A stretch of DNA of 64,000 nt from Candidatus Bathyarchaeota archaeon (GTDB lineage: Archaea > Thermoproteota > Bathyarchaeia > Bathyarchaeales > Bathycorpusculaceae). The stretch covers positions 32,001 through 96,000 of the forward strand of contig CAWFFH010000001.1 of assembly GCA_963815095.1 (NCBI GenBank), in the 5' to 3' direction. Position numbers and translations under genes: made by a program. The notes beneath the pieces were generated by a model. It did not search any database. It was not told the DNA's origin and saw only the letters and a list, made by a program, of their open reading frames with translations. Positions 7,367-47,486 of this stretch are shown one piece after another (positions within the stretch are counted from its first letter, which is position 1; every line of letters begins with the position of its first letter).

Positions 7367-7648
7367 TTATTTTTTTGTTTTGGGTTTTGTCTGTGGAATT
7401 TTTGTGGGTTCATCCCAGTATTTGTCAAATTCTTCGGGTGACATTATGTTGAGGCTTTTGAGTTGTTGGCTAAACGTGTCCAGGGCGCAAGGGTTGTTGA
7501 GGTGTGCACGGTAAATCTCCATCAGCAAATCAATTGCCATCGAAGTCGAAATGGGCTTTTTCGCCATTAACGACAGCTCCTCAGAGACTTTAACTAAATC
7601 CTCATGAACCCGCAAGGGCAAATCAACAGTCTTAGTCATACCAAACAC
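7367..7648 (-). CDS. Hypothetical protein, possible ribbon-helix-helix DNA-binding protein
   Basis: 93 aa ORF; N-terminal short beta strand (KTVDL) followed by two predicted helices. Confidence 0.5.
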   Translation of the reverse strand: MFGMTKTVDLPLRVHEDLVKVSEELSLMAKKPISTSMAIDLLMEIYRAHLNNPCALDTFSQQLKSLNIMSPEEFDKYWDEPTKIPQTKPKTKK

Positions 7649-24481: not shown

Positions 24482-27127
24482 ATGCAAATTGTAAAGCACA
24501 AAAATCTTGCTTTAATACTGTCTACGATTTTAGCTATTTCAATGGCATTTGCAATAGTGCCCCTTCCAACTGCAAACGCACATACACCACCTTGGCAAAT
24601 TCCAACCTTTGCGTATGTTCAGGTGGCACCCAACCCGGTGGGTGTCGGTCAGCCAGTGCATGTTTTTATTTGGCTCAACGTTCCTCATGACGGTGCAGCA
24701 GTAACAAACGATTACAGATTTCATAATTACCTACTAAACATTACAGCGCCTAATGGTATAACAACGACAACTTCATATGCTAATATCCAAGATACGACAT
24801 CTTCCCAATACTTCATAGTGACTCCTGACCAAATTGGAACATACATTTTTAACTTCACTTTCCCAGGAAACAACATTAATGACTACAGCCACGCGAACGA
24901 TGCATTCGTAAATGACACCTACCTGCCAAGCTCAGCATCCACTACACTTATAGTTAAACAAGAACCTCTGCCAGACCCAATCGGTAGCTATCCGCTTCCT
25001 CAAGAATATTGGACAAGACCAATCTACGGTGAAAACAACTTCTGGTGGACGATTTCATCCAATTGGTTAGGTCAAGGAGCACCTGGCTACGCTGGCGTCA
25101 ACAGACCAGGAGCAAGACAACAAAGCTTTCCAGGCGATGCCGTAGGACCACAAACCGCTCATATCATGTGGACTAAACCACTCCAAACTGGAGGAGTCGT
25201 TGGAGGAAACAACTTCGCAATACAAGGAAACACATACTTTGAAGGATCCGCCTACAACCAAAGATTTGCCAACCCCATAATTCTGAACGGAAAACTGTAC
25301 TATACTGAAACTGTGTCTTTCACCGGTACCCCCAATAACGGCTTTGGAAGTGCAGGTCCGATCGGTCCAACTGACTGTATTGATTTACGCACGGGACAAA
25401 TTCTTTGGTCTCGCAGTGATGTTCCTCCGCTTTCATTCGGCTACATATATGACCTCGAAGACCCTAACCAACACGGAGTTTACCCCGCAATTCTTTTCAC
25501 AAGCAACTTTGCACGTGCTTTCGACGCAGATACAGGAACCGCATTGTTTAATGTGACAGGTGTTCCAACAGGCACATTAGCAAAGGGTCCACAAGGAGAA
25601 CAATTAAGGTATGTAATATCAAATATAGGCACCACAGCGAACCCAAATTGGACGCTAGCTGAGTGGAATTCGACAAAAATCTGGTCATTTGCAAGTACAA
25701 ATCCTGGACTTAATTATACAGGTCCAATTGACGGAAGCATTTCAGATTTAAACAATCCCAGCACTCGATATGACTGGAATGTCTCAATACCTTGGCGCGC
25801 AAGCATGACAGCAACAACAGTCTTCAACGGTTTCTACAACAACATGTTACTTTGCTATAACGGCTCTTTGCCAAATGTGTTTAACGCCCTTACACTAACT
25901 CCATACACATACTTCGCGGTCAACCTTAACGCCTCTCGACCAGGATACAAAATAGGTGATTTACTATGGACAAACACAGTTAATCCATCATCAAACAACG
26001 TCAGCATCAACGTAGGAGACTCAGATCCAATCGCAGGTGTTTTCGTTGAAGGATACCGCGAGACAACACAATGGGTTGGATACAGTATGACTACAGGAGC
26101 AAAACTTTGGGGTCCAACAGCAGGGCAATCACCATGGGACTACTATGGCAATACAGGCGTCTCCATCGCCCAAGGAGCAGCTGCCTACGGCAACCTCTAC
26201 AGTAGTGGATTTGGCGGAATAACCTACTGCTATGATTTAACAAATGGTCAACTACGCTTCACATATGGCAATGGCGGACCAGGCAACAGCACTAACAGCG
26301 GCTTTTACACAGCTTACGGCGACTACCCAACCTTCATAACAGCAATTGGCGACGGAGTGATCTACCTGATTAGTACTGAACACACAGCCACCTCTCCGAT
26401 TTACAAAGGCGCCTTGGCACGTGCAATCAACGCTACAGATGGAACAGAAATATGGACCCTATCAGATTATACTTCAACACTAGCAGGTCCAGGTTCCTCA
26501 CCCACAAGCTACGCAATTGCCGATGGATATGCAACTTTCTTCAATGGCTATGACAACCAAATCTATAGCGTCGGCAGAGGACCAACAGGCATTTCAGTTG
26601 ATGCCTCAAAGCTTCAGACCATCGGAGGCAGCGTCGTCATTACTGGTCGATTAACGGATGTTTCTGCAGGTACAAAACAAGATGAGCAAGCCTCACGATT
26701 CGCTAATGGGGTTCCATGCGCTTCTGACGCCAGCATGAAAGACTGGATGGGCTATGTTTACCAGCAAAAACCATTGCCCACCAACTTTACAGGGGTTCCA
26801 GTAACCATAGATGTCGTAGATTCTAACGGCAACTACCGAAACATTGGAACTGCCACCACCGATGCAAGCGGCGAATACAGCCTTGTATGGGCACCCGACA
26901 TCCCAGGAACATACAATGTCGTTGCTACTTTCCACGGAACCAATGGCTACTGGCAATCATACACAGAAACAACATTTAACGTAATGCAAGCAGCCGCTAC
27001 CCCAACGTCACCAATATCTGCACCAACGTCAAACACTGACATGTACATATTAGGCTCCGCAATTGCCATCATAATTGTGGTAATCATTGTCGGCGCAGCA
27101 ATAATTTTGATGCAAAGAAAAAGATAG
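24482..27127 (+). CDS. Large secreted PQQ-like beta-propeller surface protein with C-terminal TM anchor
   Basis: Signal peptide; repeated D..TG...W blades; PNPVGVGQ and YWTRPI motifs; Ig-like C-terminal domain, TM helix and QRKR tail. ATG at 24482. Confidence 0.78.
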   Translation: MQIVKHKNLALILSTILAISMAFAIVPLPTANAHTPPWQIPTFAYVQVAPNPVGVGQPVHVFIWLNVPHDGAAVTNDYRFHNYLLNITAPNGITTTTSYANIQDTTSSQYFIVTPDQIGTYIFNFTFPGNNINDYSHANDAFVNDTYLPSSASTTLIVKQEPLPDPIGSYPLPQEYWTRPIYGENNFWWTISSNWLGQGAPGYAGVNRPGARQQSFPGDAVGPQTAHIMWTKPLQTGGVVGGNNFAIQGNTYFEGSAYNQRFANPIILNGKLYYTETVSFTGTPNNGFGSAGPIGPTDCIDLRTGQILWSRSDVPPLSFGYIYDLEDPNQHGVYPAILFTSNFARAFDADTGTALFNVTGVPTGTLAKGPQGEQLRYVISNIGTTANPNWTLAEWNSTKIWSFASTNPGLNYTGPIDGSISDLNNPSTRYDWNVSIPWRASMTATTVFNGFYNNMLLCYNGSLPNVFNALTLTPYTYFAVNLNASRPGYKIGDLLWTNTVNPSSNNVSINVGDSDPIAGVFVEGYRETTQWVGYSMTTGAKLWGPTAGQSPWDYYGNTGVSIAQGAAAYGNLYSSGFGGITYCYDLTNGQLRFTYGNGGPGNSTNSGFYTAYGDYPTFITAIGDGVIYLISTEHTATSPIYKGALARAINATDGTEIWTLSDYTSTLAGPGSSPTSYAIADGYATFFNGYDNQIYSVGRGPTGISVDASKLQTIGGSVVITGRLTDVSAGTKQDEQASRFANGVPCASDASMKDWMGYVYQQKPLPTNFTGVPVTIDVVDSNGNYRNIGTATTDASGEYSLVWAPDIPGTYNVVATFHGTNGYWQSYTETTFNVMQAAATPTSPISAPTSNTDMYILGSAIAIIIVVIIVGAAIILMQRKR

Positions 27128-42855: not shown

Positions 42856-43335
42856 TTAGAGTTTGTAACGCCAAAATCCCATGTAGGGCGCCGCCAAATC
42901 CATCTGCCAGAACGCCGCAGACAATTCGCCGTAGTGAATCATGTTTTCCAAAACCATGTGGGTTAACGCCTTCTCAATGGATATGCCCGCGGGCTTGTCT
43001 CCCCAAGGAACAACGATTTGGCGCTTCAAATCTTCCAAAGAAAGCTTCTCCAGATATTTTTCAGTGTTGACCTTAGTTTTTTGCATGTACTTCCTCAATT
43101 CATCAATTTCTTTGAAGTCATCAAAATCTGGGTCAACCCAATCGCTGAAGCGTTCCGGGATGGTGTAGCTTATCCACCTGTCTTCAACTAGCATCAAATG
43201 CAAGAACACATCCCGCATAGAACCATAACTTAAACCCCGAGGCTCAACCACCTGCCCCCAAGGCAACTTCGCCATAGCGTCAAAATAGAGCCCACGAACA
43301 ACGTGGTTGTAACGACCTAAATCGGCGGTTTCCAT
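42856..43335 (-). CDS. DinB/YfiT-family metalloprotein
   Basis: SMRD.FLH...VE.RW and LTH...E..IH.GE His pattern. Confidence 0.85.
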   Translation of the reverse strand: METADLGRYNHVVRGLYFDAMAKLPWGQVVEPRGLSYGSMRDVFLHLMLVEDRWISYTIPERFSDWVDPDFDDFKEIDELRKYMQKTKVNTEKYLEKLSLEDLKRQIVVPWGDKPAGISIEKALTHMVLENMIHYGELSAAFWQMDLAAPYMGFWRYKL

Positions 43336-43368
43336 GAAAATGTGTTAGGTAAATTTGATATTTAAAAA

Positions 43369-44442
43369 TTAAGAAGAAATCGTTTGAGTAATTCTTAGTA
43401 TGATAAACTCAGCTGGCTTCTTGACGGCTACACCGATGAGAAGGTTTATTCGTCCGTTGTCGACGTCGTTTTGGTTCATCGTGGTTTGGTCGCAATGTAC
43501 AAAGAAGGCTTCTTGCTGGGAGGCACCCATCAACATACCGTTCTTCCAAGTTTGTGTCAGAAAATTCTCTGTTTGAGATTTCACTTTAGCCCACGTTGCC
43601 GCATTGTTCGGTTCGAATGTTACCCATGCGGTTCCTTTCTTGATTGATTGCTCAAAGTAAATCATTAACCTGCGGACAGTCACGTACTTCCATTCTGAGT
43701 CGTTTGAGAGCGTTCGGGCGCCCCAAACAAGTATGCCTCTACCCGAAAAGTTCCGAATACTGTTTATTCCCTGTGGTGTAAGATTGTCTTGTTGGTACGA
43801 TTTCATCGTTAACTCAAGGTCCACTGCGCCTTTGACCAACTGATTTGCAGGGGCCTTATGAACGCCAAACTCAATATCGGTGCGCGCGTAGATTCCTGCC
43901 ATATGTCCGCCTGGCGGAACCAAACGCACAGGACCAGTCTCTGTCTCCTTTACGTAAATCCATGGATAATACAACGCGGCAAATGAAGAATCACCCGGTT
44001 TAGTTACACAGGATGGATCCTGGCCTTTGAAAGAATCAAAAATGACAAAGCGGTTCCGTAACCGTTCACAGTGGCCAATCAACGCGTTTGCTAAACCTGA
44101 TGTGGCTTGTGCGTTGGGAGAGTAAATGATTGAAGCATCCACCGCCTCAAGTTTAGCAAGGGCCCCTGCAAAGTGCCCATCGTTTACGTTGCATACGTAA
44201 CAACGTTTGCCACCGTTCCCAAAGAACCCTTCAACTGAATATGGCAGATATTTGTTCGCCCCAAAGTAACCTCCGAAAAGCCTTTGATATTCAATGAAAC
44301 TAGTGACAATGGTTGGGGCAGCTGGGCCAGTTTGGGTTTCACCTAAAAAAGCAGCGTTGCTGGTGCTTACACCCTCGATTGATTGAGGCTGAATTCTGAC
44401 GTTTTGTACAAATACGCCTGGTTTTATGGGTAGACGGCTCAT
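43369..44442 (-). CDS. Contractile tail sheath protein (phage / eCIS type), orphan
   Basis: PGVFV, IEGVSTS.AAFLG, V.SF.EY...FG, GFF.NGG.RCYV, AALYYPW, VPP.G.MAGIYARTD...GVHKAPAN, GIN.IR.F.GRG..VWGARTL, W.YV.VRRL, FEPN, L.G....EAFFV.CD..TM...D..NG, PAEFI. Confidence 0.95.
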   Translation of the reverse strand: MSRLPIKPGVFVQNVRIQPQSIEGVSTSNAAFLGETQTGPAAPTIVTSFIEYQRLFGGYFGANKYLPYSVEGFFGNGGKRCYVCNVNDGHFAGALAKLEAVDASIIYSPNAQATSGLANALIGHCERLRNRFVIFDSFKGQDPSCVTKPGDSSFAALYYPWIYVKETETGPVRLVPPGGHMAGIYARTDIEFGVHKAPANQLVKGAVDLELTMKSYQQDNLTPQGINSIRNFSGRGILVWGARTLSNDSEWKYVTVRRLMIYFEQSIKKGTAWVTFEPNNAATWAKVKSQTENFLTQTWKNGMLMGASQQEAFFVHCDQTTMNQNDVDNGRINLLIGVAVKKPAEFIILRITQTISS

Positions 44443-44451
44443 GATATAGGA

Positions 44452-44859
44452 TTATGTTGGAGGGCGTTTTTGTGCGTATTGGTATCTGCGTGGTTTGCCT
44501 ATACGTGTTAGGATGTTGTCTTTGACGAGGTCGACGAGGGCGTGGGCTACGGCGGTGCGGTCGTAGTGGAAGCCTTTGCGTGCGAGTTCGGTGTGGACGT
44601 CGTCTAAGCCTCGTGGCTCTGAAAACCAGTTTTCTTCCCAGAGTTTTTGGATTACTCCTCGGCAGGTTTCGGCGCGGGGTAGGGAGGCTGGGCGTTCGGC
44701 GATTTGGGTTAGGTTGATGTTTTTGGAGTGTTCGGTTACGGTGGAGAGAATTTGGTTTACGGCGGTTTGGATTTGGTCGCTTTGGGCTTCGATTTCGAAT
44801 TCTATGTCTCCGATTTTCATTTTTACTTTGATGGGTGGGTTTTGCTGTGGTTGTGTCAA
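44452..44859 (-). CDS. Winged-helix hypothetical protein
   Basis: TTG at 44859 preceded by AGGTGA; N-terminal KVKMKIGDIEFEIE beta hairpin; C-terminal WF..PR.L..V..EL...G.HY....VA.AL..LV....L.R.G....YQY. Confidence 0.75.
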   Translation of the reverse strand: MTQPQQNPPIKVKMKIGDIEFEIEAQSDQIQTAVNQILSTVTEHSKNINLTQIAERPASLPRAETCRGVIQKLWEENWFSEPRGLDDVHTELARKGFHYDRTAVAHALVDLVKDNILTRIGKPRRYQYAQKRPPT

Positions 44860-44952
44860 CTCTTCACCTATTGTATATTGAATTGTGCAAGATGCACATG
44901 CACAATACTTAAATATTTCACCAATAAAGATATTGAATATTGGTGAATCAAC

Positions 44953-46023
44953 GTGATTGAACAATATACAATTACTAACAAATATAACTTTCCACAACCC
45001 AGTATCGACTCACTACTCCCCCATCGATTCTTCGAGCAATCAATCCGCACTCTCAAAGAAGTCCAACAAATCCCCATGCACCTAAATCAGCAAGTTGTAC
45101 AGCAGTTCAATATATCCCAACAAACCACCAACCTACAACTTAACCCTGTCCCAATCAACCTAAAACCCGACCACCAAGAAACGATTATTGCAGGTATCGA
45201 CACTTCGACGATAAAAATAGGTGAAACTTCAACAGGGATCATTGTTGCAATCCGTGGGGCGACAACTTGGAAACAAAGCGGCTGCTACAAATACTCGCGA
45301 CTCGGTCCATTCATTTTCCATATAACCGAAGATAACAAAAACCAGCTATTCAACACACTCGAACACGCTTATTTTAGCACGACATATGGCAATTGTCACC
45401 AAGCTGCCCCAAACATCATGCAAATGCCTACACGCCTCGCCAGCCTTCTGGAGAGATGGCTACAAACAATGCTTGCCAAAACCGTGAATCAAGGGGTTCT
45501 CCTCTTTGACGGCTCATTAACTGCTGGTACCCCCGAAACCCCCACTCAGCGCCTTAGGGAAATCTTGAACTTTGCCCGCAGGAATCAGACCACGGTTTTG
45601 GGGTTTTCAAAAGCGACCACATTGAGAGCCAATGGGTTGCTGATAACAGAGCAGCTTCCTAATCGTGATCCACCTTACTTGCTCGAGACCTCAGGGTTAC
45701 ACTCAAAACCGCCGATGATGCTGCTGGGCGATGTCTATGTGGCTCGGCTCAACAAGGCAAACTTTGCATTCAGAATGGATATTGACAAAGAGACGCCCTT
45801 TGCACAACGAATCGACGCACTTCAAAAGCTCTTGGGCAATGATCTCTACACTCAAAGCTACCCCGAAACCCTGCGTTTATCGCATATTCTTTGCACCTTT
45901 ACGGCAAACGAAGTCTTAGCAATCAAACACTTCATTATCCGCAAACACGGCATCCAAATCGTCAACAGACCGGACATGCACAAAGTCCTCTTCGGCTCCT
46001 ACGGGTTCAAGGGAGAAAACTAA
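44953..46023 (+). CDS. nurA: NurA-family nuclease
   Basis: IAGIDTS, LLFDGSL, LGFSK.T and YPETLRLSH motifs. Confidence 0.8.
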   Translation: MIEQYTITNKYNFPQPSIDSLLPHRFFEQSIRTLKEVQQIPMHLNQQVVQQFNISQQTTNLQLNPVPINLKPDHQETIIAGIDTSTIKIGETSTGIIVAIRGATTWKQSGCYKYSRLGPFIFHITEDNKNQLFNTLEHAYFSTTYGNCHQAAPNIMQMPTRLASLLERWLQTMLAKTVNQGVLLFDGSLTAGTPETPTQRLREILNFARRNQTTVLGFSKATTLRANGLLITEQLPNRDPPYLLETSGLHSKPPMMLLGDVYVARLNKANFAFRMDIDKETPFAQRIDALQKLLGNDLYTQSYPETLRLSHILCTFTANEVLAIKHFIIRKHGIQIVNRPDMHKVLFGSYGFKGEN

Positions 46024-46025
46024 CC

Positions 46026-47486
46026 ATGAAACTATACAAAAAAGAAGGCAACATTCTCCAAATCATCAGCTTCCCCACTGAGAACGCAGAAAAAGGAGAT
46101 TATTTGCTAGTCGAAGATGGTGATGCAGCGAAGGCTTTGATTGCACAGGTTATTGATGTTCAATTCGCGGCTGTCCCCGGTGTTTTGGAAGAATTATTGC
46201 GGACGTTGCCCGATGGAGGCGAACCCTTGCAGGGCGAAGACATTGACCCTATGGAAATTGCACCCCACATCACTTACATCCAAGATGCAAGCCTTCTGAT
46301 TTGTAAGATAAGGGCAACCTTGGAAAACGAAATGTTCAGTCCAAGTAGCAGTTGGTTACCTTCTCGTTCGCAATCTACTATCAAGAAACTTTCTATCCCC
46401 ATGCTTATGAAAATGGCGAAGGTCGATGGTAAATTGCCTATAACTATGGGCGGAACTAAAGATTCCTCGCTCCTCACCATTGACGCCTCGGATATCGACG
46501 GTACCCTAAACATCATCACAGGAAAGAAGGGCTGCGGCAAATCTCACCTCTCAAAACTCCTCATGGTCAACCTCGTCGGTTACAAAGCAACCGTAGTTAT
46601 CTTTGACCTTAACGGTGAATACAGTAGCCTCGGCATGACCAATGACGGCAAAAGAAACATGTACTACGACAAAATCCACACGCTCACGCCTTCTCAGAAT
46701 TTCAAGGTGGCACTTGAGCAGCTGCCTCTGAATACCGTGATGGGAATACTCGTGAATGCGCTTCATCTGCCCGGAACTTCAGCCCGTGAGTTCAGAAGAC
46801 TATGGAAAATGCTCAAGGAACAGGGCAAGCTGAATATGCAAAATTTGGGTGAAGCAATCCGAGACTTGAACTGTAATCAGCACGTGCGAGATGCGTTGGC
46901 GTCAAGGTTTCATTCGTTTGCTAACTCGGGTTTCTTCACTGACTGCTTAGGTGAGGCTTCTTTGCTTGATGAGAGCATTTTCAAAGCTAAAGATGTTGGC
47001 GGTGCTATCATAGTAAACCTAAAAAATACCTCTAATATCGACCGCCAAATAGTCGTTGAATACGTTCTGGGGAAACTGGTTGATTCCCTCTCCAAGTGGA
47101 AACTCAAAGCCGTCTTCCTATTCGCCGAAGAAGCTCATCTGTACCTACGCGAAACCTACTGGGACGACATCGTCACCCGCATGCGCCATTACGGCATATT
47201 TACCACCTTCATAACCAACCAACCGGACACAATCCAAGAAACCATCTACCGACAGGCCGATAATATCTTCCTCTTCAACTTCACCAACGAACATGATTTG
47301 GATGTGGTTTCAAGGGCAGCTCGTGTTGATTCTGAAACGGTGCGTTCAATTGCTCGCGATTTGCCACCGCATCACTGCCTAACCCTGGGCAAAGTGGTAA
47401 GAGATTTTCCAATAGTAGCACGTGTCAGAGCCTTAGACATCAAAACATTGGGAGAAACACGCCTGTTCTTTAGCGATAAGAATTAG
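46026..47486 (+). CDS. herA: HerA/FtsK-family ATPase (DUF87)
   Basis: N-terminal HAS-barrel-like region; Walker A ITGKKGCGKS, IFDLNGEY, Walker B LFAEEAH, R.RHYG, ITNQP. ATG at 46026, 2 nt after the nurA stop. Confidence 0.83.
   Translation: MKLYKKEGNILQIISFPTENAEKGDYLLVEDGDAAKALIAQVIDVQFAAVPGVLEELLRTLPDGGEPLQGEDIDPMEIAPHITYIQDASLLICKIRATLENEMFSPSSSWLPSRSQSTIKKLSIPMLMKMAKVDGKLPITMGGTKDSSLLTIDASDIDGTLNIITGKKGCGKSHLSKLLMVNLVGYKATVVIFDLNGEYSSLGMTNDGKRNMYYDKIHTLTPSQNFKVALEQLPLNTVMGILVNALHLPGTSAREFRRLWKMLKEQGKLNMQNLGEAIRDLNCNQHVRDALASRFHSFANSGFFTDCLGEASLLDESIFKAKDVGGAIIVNLKNTSNIDRQIVVEYVLGKLVDSLSKWKLKAVFLFAEEAHLYLRETYWDDIVTRMRHYGIFTTFITNQPDTIQETIYRQADNIFLFNFTNEHDLDVVSRAARVDSETVRSIARDLPPHHCLTLGKVVRDFPIVARVRALDIKTLGETRLFFSDKN

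Follow-up and report, generated by a model that had tools for sequence, protein, structure and literature searches.

The window analysed here, a 64-kb stretch of contig C1 of a Bathyarchaeia genome (G000), encodes an intact one-domain contractile sheath protein of the Cis2/Afp2 type. The gene is under purifying selection, has host-like base composition, and is held at a single chromosomal site within its genus (Table 1). We lean towards the explanation that the ancestor of the genus had a resident contractile injection system (CIS), from which this gene has come down vertically as a domesticated remnant, and that the sheath protein is still self-polymerising. To our knowledge, every characterised sheath works only within a tail-like machine nucleated by a baseplate; a sheath maintained by dozens of species without baseplate and spike genes is a natural experiment on what a sheath, with or without a tube, can do alone.

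Table 1. Features of the sheath locus, in window coordinates
Feature	Position	Strand	Evidence
Stand-alone Cis2-type contractile sheath gene, 357 aa	43369..44442	-	Pfam, PHROG, AF2, Foldseek, omega
Upstream neighbour, 135-aa archaeal hypothetical protein ("wHTH" of the original prediction)	44452..44859	-	Atlas lead
Downstream neighbour, DinB-superfamily protein	42856..43335	-	Pfam DinB_2/DinB, 4e-7/6e-7
Divergent NurA-like and HerA-like pair	44953..47486	+	Pfam, PADLOC
20-nt stretch conserved 23-42 nt ahead of the sheath start codon	44465..44484	-	Loci comparison

The sheath protein and its chromosomal site

The sheath ORF matched both Pfam sheath domains above their curated cut-offs (Phage_sheath_1 at 5.6e-18, 65.8 bits against a cut-off of 31.4; Phage_sheath_1C at 9.2e-15, 55.0 bits against 26.9) and the PHROG tail sheath family at 3.6e-55, and PADLOC and NCBIfam returned no match for the protein. 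The AF2 model of the monomer (pLDDT 89.2, pTM 0.86) gave 122 PDB matches at E <= 0.001 in Foldseek, the best among those listed being single-chain sheaths of CIS, pyocins, diffocins and myophages. The two domains, the sheath fold and the conserved arms place the protein in the sheath family, and the agreement of Pfam, PHROG and AF2 bears out the original prediction of an intact 357-aa sheath. All 23 family-invariant residues are kept, and P8, G9 and P343-A344-E345-F346 are nearly invariant among 37 sequences. The N- and C-terminal arms of solved sheaths are not known to do anything but knit the subunits together in an inter-subunit mesh. In the AF2 monomer, residues 1-7 and 9-14 had a pLDDT below 50, and across 31 clade members the frequency of the top residue was 0.70 in the N-terminal stretch 1-28, 0.77 in the C-terminal stretch 335-350 and 0.74 overall.

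Among solved structures, the best fit was to Cis2 of the cytoplasmic CIS of S. coelicolor (PDB 9gts, 8bky, 8bl4, 9gtp). The window sheath aligned with chain 9gts_2A at a TM score of 0.86 by both lengths and an rmsd of 2.6 Å over 355 columns (45% identity); identity to the other Streptomyces CIS chains was 40-44%, and all share the one-domain size of about 350-370 aa. The gene of the Streptomyces sheath belongs to a full cluster, and the structure was determined in complex with the baseplate, tube and cap, whereas the window sheath has neither a cluster nor a baseplate gene. The top Foldseek E-value (4.4e-40) was obtained with the sheath of Halogeometricum borinquense (PDB 9ezm, 35% identity), and no other archaeal CIS is represented by a solved sheath in the Foldseek matches listed; that sheath is unlike the window's in having 487 aa and an extra domain (TMt 0.64). 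The eCIS sheaths Afp2 and Pvc2 (PDB 6rao, 6rbn, 6j0b, 9qgp) share fold and length with the window sheath (TM 0.79-0.82, 29-32% identity), but these eCIS are 16-20-gene cassettes with several sheath paralogues and the window has a single gene. Minimal one-domain sheath homologues of Bathyarchaeota were already recorded by Evseev et al. (2022; PMC9230969), who modelled one 321-aa protein from a Bathyarchaeota MAG; the portions of that article accessible to us contain nothing on genomic context, synteny, selection or missing partners. Our literature search found nothing on contractile injection in Bathyarchaeia and, among the matches listed, nothing on solo sheaths.

Of 120 genomes from this Bathyarchaeia genus, 45 gave a sheath match of any kind and the remaining 75 gave none, so the gene is dispensable. 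Intact orthologues of the solo clade, which we classed by our own reading as sequences of at least 57% identity, full length and without stops, were present in 28 of the 120. These orthologues occupy one chromosomal site across species in which their identity has fallen to 57-92%: NUDIX/ABC genes on one side and HIT/DUF59/ABC genes on the other flank the sheath in 6/6 genus loci with a full-length gene and in 9/9 named Bathyarchaeota loci compared, and the same flanks surround a broken copy (G011:C5). The wider family comprises at least 120 clusters (56-100% identity), all with both sheath domains and most of 356-363 aa. The solo clade forms a monophyletic group (SH-aLRT 89%). Decayed copies were seen in G011, G106, G051, G092 and G114, and a further broken or fragmentary one in G110:C15. 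The split sheath ORFs of L060, L061 and L062 were left out of this count because neighbouring genes are split too, suggesting assembly errors. In a tree of three flank proteins from 18 of 21 loci (three were dropped for a missing marker), sheath-less loci were nested among sheath-bearing loci at three places, in line with an ancestral presence of the gene; the sheath has repeatedly been lost or has decayed in congeners.

The sheath omega (dN/dS) was 0.166, 0.104, 0.111 and 0.108 in four pairwise comparisons in which dS reached 1.7, and that of neighbouring genes (4-13 per comparison) was 0.00-0.15. The GC content (0.464), GC3 (0.458) and codon cosine (0.90) of the sheath gene were all inside the range of its neighbours. 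The question raised originally, whether solo sheaths form a clade with conserved synteny and purifying selection, can thus be answered in the affirmative. The locus also lacked the tRNA and integrase marks of a myovirus provirus tail module: no tRNA was found within the window, none of the four integrase matches genome-wide was on its contig, as the original prediction had it for the window, and the sheath flanks are conserved chromosomal genes in all species compared.

Tube genes and the search for a baseplate

The original prediction had recognised no tube or baseplate gene in the 64 kb, and our searches agree, the genome's only tube match being on contig C6. This match means, however, that the sheath is not an orphan at the scale of the genome. 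A tube gene and an adjacent initiator-like gene are located at G000:C6:170929-172133. The tube gene (G000:C6:171639-172133) matched PF06841 at 2.3e-41, and the adjacent protein matched CIS_tube at 3e-6 (27.5 bits) in hmmscan. The model of the latter (pLDDT 65.8) best matched baseplate chains of about 224 aa from PVC, AFP, Anabaena and Streptomyces CIS, with E-values of 1e-7 to 2e-6. Both genes are under purifying selection, with an omega of 0.03-0.08 for the tube and 0.06-0.12 for the initiator, the value of 0.42 in the closest pair for the latter coming from few changes.

A PF06841 tube was present in 24 of the 28 intact-sheath genomes versus 29 of the 92 others. The odds ratio of 18 calculated for the link between sheath and tube ignores kinship, and the class thresholds were set after seeing the data. 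The sheath occurred without any tube in G004, G053, G091 and G133, although the absence in G053 may reflect an assembly break, since a Pvc16_N fragment begins at the contig end; conversely, a T1 tube was kept by eight genomes in which no intact sheath was present. The flank tree places G004, which has the sheath but no tube, as sister to G006, which has the tube pair but no sheath, with 99% support. When relatedness is considered, the link between sheath and tube is weak. The two genes were at least 249 kb apart in 7/7 genomes with both on one contig, and the flanks of the tube pair differ between most species. Two tube types, only about 30% identical, exist among sheath-bearing species, and the second goes with the Pvc16_N terminator in other species. 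A complex prediction from sheath and C6 tube alignments scored 0.00 against a mark of 0.32, which is evidence neither way.

No match in G000 was obtained with PF04965, PF04865 and PF09684 (the gp25-like, Baseplate_J and Tail_P2_I wedge families), with the spike family PF05954 or with PF14065, and the spike family PF04717 gave only E-values of 0.16 and 0.29, below the cut-off. The tube terminator or cap Pvc16_N, whose model matches 42 of the 120 genus genomes, was detected in G000 neither with the model nor by phmmer. Because the PF19266 profile search of the genome missed the CIS_tube gene that hmmscan finds, and weak relatives can thus escape, we backed these absences with tblastn and phmmer. 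When ORFs from the two kinds of full CIS cluster present in congeners were used in tblastn against G000, just the sheath, tube, CIS_tube and flank or generic genes were recovered, and phmmer with 130 CIS ORFs against 27,669 six-frame ORFs had the same outcome, with no baseplate, spike or cap. In G005/G016 and G108/G097 the same models did pick up gp25, Baseplate_J, Tail_P2_I, Phage_base_V and Pvc16_N. A gp25 gene was found in one intact-sheath genome (G125) and was missing from the other 27 of 28, including the single-contig assemblies G013, G068 and G084. These absences are read from MAGs, that of G000 being 98.45% complete.

The partner search in the genome and its relatives therefore yielded a tube on C6, but no baseplate or spike in G000. 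Of the hallmarks of a CIS the genome has the inner tube, and wedge, spike, terminator and clustering at one locus were not found; nor did we find elsewhere in G000 a complete eCIS or provirus locus from which the sheath alone is missing. The case also shows that the presence of CIS components in an archaeal MAG is no evidence of a working injection system or a provirus. The nearest sheaths found in intact systems are those of G108:C6 and G097:C7 (47-53% identity) and of G005:C191 and G016:C51 (36-38%), and the G000 tube shares 60-66% identity with that of the G005:C191/G016:C51 kind. Unlike the 357-aa window sheath, the full-CIS sheaths of congeners have 566-817 aa with inserted domains, and they adjoin tube, Pvc16_N, Tail_P2_I, Baseplate_J, gp25 and Phage_base_V genes.

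Possible functions of the sheath

According to the explanation we favour, the sheath gene would have been retained at its site from the CIS resident in the genus ancestor. Because the arms are disordered in the monomer yet as conserved as the globular core, we infer that selection still acts on the ability of the protein to self-assemble into a sheath polymer. The likeliest partners would be the unlinked tube modules, here the gp19-type tube with the Cis7-like initiator on C6 and in other species the second tube type with the Pvc16_N terminator. Such modules could seed a tube on which the sheath would polymerise without a baseplate, the product being a baseplate-free filament, not a conventional injector. 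Within this explanation, versions with the tube and with the sheath alone appear to us about equally probable. As the gene has no injection machine around it and relatives have kept it in place under selection, the job of the sheath is probably something other than conventional injection. It is possible, though doubtful, that CIS parts have here been turned into a baseplate-free intracellular filament with a structural or defensive role, which would be a new functional class of machinery derived from phage tails. Were this the case, it would be the first domesticated stand-alone sheath and one more phage-derived exaptation, and structural studies would gain a minimal sheath-tube pair that assembles by itself.

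One could also envisage that the sheath acts alone, as a polysheath-like polymer or scaffold inside the cell or as a decoy subunit that polymerises into the tails of contractile viruses or incoming CIS and poisons them, and that the tube genes were domesticated separately. We regard this as rather unlikely, but it draws on several observations: the sheath-only genomes (G004, G091, G133), the tube-only genomes (G006, G014, G054, G120, G128), the reciprocal retention in the sisters G004 and G006, the patchy presence and repeated loss typical of accessory or defence genes, and the location in a variable region beside a HerA/NurA-like accessory module, for which PADLOC gave the defence-system model mad8 as the best match (5e-17). 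In addition, full CIS clusters with the related (47-53%) sheaths circulate in the genus and could be targets. In contrast, PADLOC has no match for the sheath itself, and the tube is present in most sheath genomes (24 of 28). A matching target virus was not seen either, as no viral sheath of the solo clade was among the best 80 of 117 relatives when viral contigs (IMG/VR) were searched with the sheath alignment; the nearest within those 80 were at 41% (full length) and 50% (partial). Furthermore, a decoy would be expected to experience diversifying selection, in contrast to the omega of about 0.1 that was observed. The other possibility raised originally was a dispersed injection system. That the sheath is part of a complete, working CIS of this kind, with the rest either carried by a plasmid or virus that escaped binning or diverged beyond recognition, is in our view improbable. 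The tube and Cis7-like initiator are indeed encoded away from the sheath, MAGs often lack plasmids, and G125 has scattered groups on three contigs (sheath; tube and Pvc16_N; gp25-x-spike). A plasmid location has a precedent in the T6SS-like CIS of H. borinquense, for which the available part of the source describes a plasmid-borne cluster of 14 genes similar to CIS structural components, and a membrane anchor (PMC11566945). However, three methods uncovered no baseplate, spike or cap gene in a nearly complete genome, gp25 is absent even from single-contig assemblies of sheath-bearing congeners, and the baseplate genes of the congeners' own CIS were easily recognised. We know of no described CIS cluster from which the sheath and tube alone are missing. 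Orphan islands of T6SS generally feed a complete T6SS encoded elsewhere. Such hcp/vgrG/PAAR islands are a further case of CIS-derived genes away from a main cluster (PMC13098142), but the orphans in the part of that article available are tube, spike or tip genes, whereas in the present case it is the sheath that stands apart, and a main cluster was not found.

The broken and fragmentary copies noted above (G011:C5, G106, G051, G092, G114, G110:C15) and the 75 genomes with no sheath match could suggest that the gene is a functionless leftover from a CIS or provirus since lost, with its decay still pending. This is very improbable given an omega of 0.10-0.17 with dS up to 1.7, the 28 orthologues that are intact and full length at identities as low as 57%, the length of 356-363 aa held in most of the at least 120 clusters, the host-like composition and the 23 of 23 invariant residues kept. 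Nor did we find the combination of absence from relatives and relaxed selection by which the original prediction would have recognised recent debris. The domesticated sheath that it proposed fits better than debris because the gene is undamaged, stands alone at its locus and has been kept at a single site in the loci inspected.

Neighbouring genes

The sheath had been described as the middle gene of a wHTH-sheath-DinB operon. The gaps of 9 nt to the upstream ORF and 33 nt to the downstream ORF are as reported, and the DinB assignment of the downstream gene was confirmed. The upstream ORF had no match in Pfam, PHROG, PADLOC or NCBIfam, so that "wHTH" is a lead only, derived from Atlas rank 6 (Penicillinase_R on 16% of members). 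Neither the DinB ORF nor the NurA-like ORF matched in PADLOC or NCBIfam; the NurA-like ORF scored 17.8 bits, under the Pfam cut-off of 21, and the HerA/DUF87 ORF matched DUF87 at 6.4e-14.

It was further proposed that this operon and the NurA-HerA pair divergent from it make up a module linked to damage or infection, a reading to which we give hardly any credence. The three genes share one strand with short gaps in this genome, and wHTH adjoins the sheath in seven other loci (L019, L020, L052, L056, L057, L060, L061). However, the wHTH/NurA/HerA block is missing from six sheath-bearing loci (G004, G013, L053, L055, L058, L062) and is found, in some cases with DinB, in the sheath-less G002, G012 and G015; in the last two, DinB is directly 3' of the upstream ORF. 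Adjacent DinB is missing or replaced at the sheath in five loci (L052, L019, L055, L057, L058). An oppositely oriented 403-aa membrane-protein gene takes its place in L052, whose sheath is 92% identical to that of the window, and in G009. Co-variation in the presence of the three genes was not seen, and direct reading revealed a T5 run after the sheath stop and a TATA-like box, TTTAAATA, ahead of the DinB ATG. The operon is thus not conserved: wHTH and DinB vary independently in their presence, neither being a fixed sheath partner, and the NurA/HerA-like pair is an independent accessory module whose presence is unlinked to the sheath.

The sheath is probably transcribed on its own, as suggested by the conserved upstream stretch, the T-run after the stop and the changing neighbours. 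Of the 11 loci read, 9-10 retain the 20-nt stretch ahead of the sheath, including loci otherwise without the upstream ORF. We rejected it as an independent motif, as it belongs to the coding sequence at the 3' end of that ORF and also occurs in sheath-less loci; it may be a candidate sheath promoter element or, alternatively, a plain remnant of that ORF.

A sheath gene kept at one chromosomal site

The original prediction of an intact, solitary contractile tail-sheath gene at this locus was confirmed by domain searches and structural modelling. The window has no tRNA gene, and none of the four integrase matches in the genome is on its contig. Phage_sheath_1 (5.6e-18) and Phage_sheath_1C (9.2e-15) of Pfam both exceeded their cut-offs, and PHROG tail-sheath families matched at up to 3.6e-55. 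An AlphaFold2 model built from a 37-row alignment had a pLDDT of 89.2 (below 50 at residues 1-7 and 9-14 only) and a pTM of 0.86. Its best Foldseek matches in the PDB were sheath chains, those of the contractile injection systems (CIS) of H. borinquense (E 4.4e-40, 35% identity) and Streptomyces coelicolor (9gts_2A; TM 0.86, rmsd 2.6 Å, 45% identity), followed by PVC, AFP, Anabaena, Algoriphagus and pyocin chains. Within the solo clade, which consists of this sheath and its orthologues, the arms are conserved to the same degree as the folded core (top-residue frequency 0.70 for the N-terminal arm, residues 1-28, and 0.77 for the C-terminal arm, residues 335-350, versus 0.74 for the core), and the protein retains the PGV...E and KPAEF motifs found throughout the family. 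The arms of solved sheaths make inter-subunit contacts only, and the three observations together point to polymerisation as the activity that would be under selection.

Coordinates of the sheath locus and of related genes (positions without a contig are those of the window)
Feature	Location	Strand	Assignment
Upstream ORF	44452-44997 as read	-	no family assigned; same run as the sheath, ending 9 nt before it
Sheath	43369-44442	-	357 aa; Pfam, PHROG, AlphaFold2/Foldseek
Downstream neighbour	starts 43335		DinB-superfamily protein (Pfam); 33 nt from the sheath
Divergent pair	44953-47486	+	NurA sub-threshold match; HerA/DUF87 match
Tube gene (T1)	G000:C6:171639-172133		PF06841, 2.3e-41; only tube in source genome G000
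Cis7-like protein	G000:C6, after tube	same as tube	229 aa; CIS_tube 27.5 bits, cut-off 27
Tube and Cis7-like module	G000:C6:170929-172133 (L005 8926-10133)		gp19-type tube and initiator
Second-type tube module	G007:C13 (L073 9160-10719)		PadR, tube, Pvc16_N
Second-type tube	G001 (L072 9055-10257)		after small AAA ATPase gene
Scattered mini-groups	G125 (L084 9642-10957, L085 8714-9770)		
Bare sheath-tube pair	G011:C13 (L024 9001-10598)		second-clade sheath, 382 aa
Bare sheath-tube pair	G121:C8 (L083 9094-12105)		second-clade sheath, 382 aa

Among 120 genomes of the genus, one per species, 45 gave a sheath match; these were sorted by thresholds set by eye after the data were seen, by which 28 carry an intact solo-clade orthologue (57-92% identity, full length, no stop). 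Four others have only a broken solo-clade copy, and G011 combines such a copy with a second-clade sheath; the second clade (about 50% identity) occurs in eight genomes and the third (36-38%) in six, G117 having both. No sheath was found in 16 sampled genomes from 11 other families of the order, and no solo-clade sheath on viral contigs. The relatives are labelled Bathyarchaeota or Bathyarchaeia, and 120/120 clusters listed from a large protein collection (56-100% identity) have both sheath domains, most being 356-363 aa long. The sheath tree recovers a monophyletic solo clade (89% SH-aLRT) and a second clade (98% support) that mixes sheaths of full clusters with those from bare pairs of sheath and tube; how the three clades branch is poorly supported, with one long-branch join flagged.

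The same chromosomal stretch, with NUDIX/ABC genes on one side and HIT/DUF59/ABC genes on the other, harbours the full-length orthologue at 6/6 genus loci, the broken copy at G011:C5 and the sheath at 9/9 named Bathyarchaeota loci compared. GC, GC3 and codon usage of the gene are inside the range of its neighbours. In a tree of three flank proteins (18 of 21 loci; three were left out for a missing marker), loci lacking the sheath nest among those that carry it at three points, each local grouping having at least 99% support, and several genomes hold fragmentary sheath copies. A single ancient arrival at the site, with repeated loss thereafter, is the simplest history. In sheath-less G006:C5, a 15-residue match to the first residues of the sheath (75% identity, E 0.087) follows NUDIX (L097, ~7551-7598) and may be the relic of a deletion. 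Several genes, the sheath included, are split into two or three ORFs at four named loci (L060, L061, L062 and L057), which looks like assembly indel error; since other genes are split too, the sheath frameshifts there were not read as pseudogenes.

Pairwise NG86 estimates gave sheath dN/dS ratios of 0.166, 0.104, 0.111 and 0.108 at dS 0.24-1.7, the more distant pairs being near saturation for this method, and 0.00-0.15 for neighbours (4-13 genes per comparison); three comparisons with saturated dS gave no ratio. With broken copies in some genomes and these ratios in others, we regard it as very improbable that the sheath is non-functional debris.

Flanking genes and transcription

The sheath had been predicted to form an operon with a winged-helix gene and DinB, associated with the divergent NurA-HerA pair. 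The close spacing would suit such a three-gene damage operon, an explanation that we consider very unlikely given that the upstream block and DinB each vary independently of the sheath. The upstream ORF and the NurA-like and HerA-like genes are all missing from six loci that keep the sheath (G004, G013, L053, L055, L058 and L062), and are present in G002, G012 and G015, which have no sheath; in the latter two, DinB directly follows the upstream ORF. No DinB adjoins the sheath at L052, L019, L055, L057 and L058, and an oppositely oriented 403-aa membrane-protein gene takes its place at L052 (sheath 92% identical) and L019. Thus, neither the operon nor the NurA-HerA link was borne out. A stretch of ~20 nt, 23-42 nt ahead of the sheath start codon (ATG), persists in 9-10/11 loci, even where the remainder of the upstream ORF, whose 3' coding end it also forms, is lost; there is a T5 run after the sheath stop, and TTTAAATA stands before the DinB ATG. 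These sequence features suggest that the sheath and its neighbours may be separate transcription units.

The upstream ORF had no match in four libraries, and the winged-helix repressor family is a weak Atlas lead only. As read, it extends at its 5' end into the divergent promoter region and the start of the NurA-like gene; translation probably begins at 44859 and yields a protein of 135 aa. Its dS is unusually low, 0.06 against L052 (neighbours 0.2-0.5) and 0.37 against L056 (neighbours 0.9-2.1). Together with the NurA-like/HerA-like pair it behaves as an accessory block that is present or missing as a unit between species. Since the best PADLOC match of the HerA-like protein is mad8 (5e-17), the pair may act in defence and not in housekeeping end resection.

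CIS parts elsewhere in the genome and the role of the sheath

The source genome (2.69 Mb, nine contigs, 98.45% complete), in which the window spans G000:C1:32001-96000, has one sheath gene. Family searches found no gp25, Baseplate_J, Phage_GPD, Pvc16_N or Tail_P2_I in it, and only sub-threshold matches to Phage_base_V. Because this initial search overlooked the known CIS_tube gene, tblastn and phmmer were added as independent tests. When every ORF from the congeners' full CIS clusters served as a tblastn query, no CIS part was matched other than sheath, tube and CIS_tube gene, the remaining matches being flank genes, a generic AAA ATPase and a large family of surface proteins; phmmer with 130 congeneric CIS-cluster ORFs against 27,669 six-frame ORFs had the same outcome. 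The same Pfam models do detect parts of the full clusters in G005/G016 (gp25, two Baseplate_J, a 566-571-aa sheath, tube, T4_baseplate, CIS_tube, Phage_base_V and eCIS_core) and G108/G097 (tube, a 696-817-aa sheath, Pvc16_N, Tail_P2_I, Baseplate_J, gp25 and Phage_base_V). The original prediction had listed neither tube nor baseplate genes in the window; in the whole genome no baseplate gene was found either, within assemblies that are MAGs or single assemblies with no guarantee of plasmids, and a tube and an initiator-like gene are present on C6. Plasmid-borne parts and the first-pass miss leave some room for a complete system with unbinned or unrecognised components, which we judge improbable after the two independent searches. 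The sheath is a true member of its family, yet the parts found in the genome do not make up a CIS as a system.

A moderate-confidence model of the 229-aa C6 protein (pLDDT 65.8) matched ~224-aa baseplate-complex chains of the PVC (chain label 7A), AFP, Anabaena and Streptomyces CIS, and also 'baseplate-initiators' of cyanophage A-1(L) (E 1e-7 to 2e-6, TM about 0.4-0.47). From this predicted fold we read it as a putative tube initiator, presumably of the Cis7/Afp7 kind. The tube and Cis7-like module occurs in 22/120 congeners under purifying selection, and persists in at least five genomes (completeness at least 90%) that have no sheath.

With no baseplate, spike or cap, the product would not be a conventional injector, and we somewhat favour a domesticated, self-assembling sheath polymer that is free of a baseplate. 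The Cis7-like ring and the tube could seed a tube that the sheath then coats; alternatively, the sheath could form polymers by itself, a known property of sheath proteins. We give these two routes about even odds. For the tube, PF06841 occurs in 24 of the 28 intact-sheath genomes versus 29 of the 92 others (relatedness ignored), as two alternative two-gene modules: T1 with the Cis7-like protein in 14 of the 28, the source genome among them, and T2, about 30% identical to T1, in another ten that lack T1, nine of them with a Pvc16_N match. Purifying selection acts on T1 and its partner, and a Pvc16_N fragment at a contig start in G053, one of the four tube-less sheath genomes, means that its tube may be unassembled. 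Against the tube, G004, which has only the sheath, and G006, which has only the tube pair, are sisters in the flank tree, eight genomes have T1 and no intact sheath, the flanks of the tube pair differ among most species, and sheath and tube are at least 249 kb apart in 7/7 genomes with both on one contig and linked in none. These latter points would fit a scaffold or decoy made of sheath alone, with the tube genes unrelated, which we rate as rather unlikely beside the domesticated polymer.

Other candidate stand-alone CIS-derived genes

One-domain minimal sheath homologues have been noted in Bathyarchaeota, with no context analysis in the passages drawn on (Evseev et al. 2022, PMC9230969), and the archaeal CIS studied so far are, in the parts drawn on of PMC11566945, complete clusters. 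In the openly accessible main texts searched on Bathyarchaeia CIS, Bathyarchaeota tail sheaths and orphan or exapted sheaths, no account of a conserved solo sheath came up.

The second-type tube stands between PadR and Pvc16_N in G007 and about 12 congeners, with no sheath or baseplate beside the module, and after a small AAA ATPase gene in G001. Pvc16_N proteins occur in 42/120 genus genomes; forms of ~290-320 aa are also found in genomes that lack any match to sheath, tube or gp25 (e.g. G012 and G015), and would be another stand-alone CIS-derived family. G125 alone carries a solo sheath, a tube with Pvc16_N, and gp25 - small ORF - Phage_base_V spike on three contigs (C22, C12 and C13), with no Baseplate_J homologue next to the gp25 group. 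G011 and G121, which have no gp25 match, hold bare pairs of sheath and tube flanked by PQQ-propeller/Ig-like surface proteins; the G121 tube divergently adjoins the sheath and is itself followed by an AAA-like gene. A family of 700-900-aa surface proteins with PQQ beta-propeller and Ig-like domains is encoded at ~24500-27100 of the window and about 25 other places in the source genome, and these paralogues are 30-64% identical to the proteins flanking the G011 pair.
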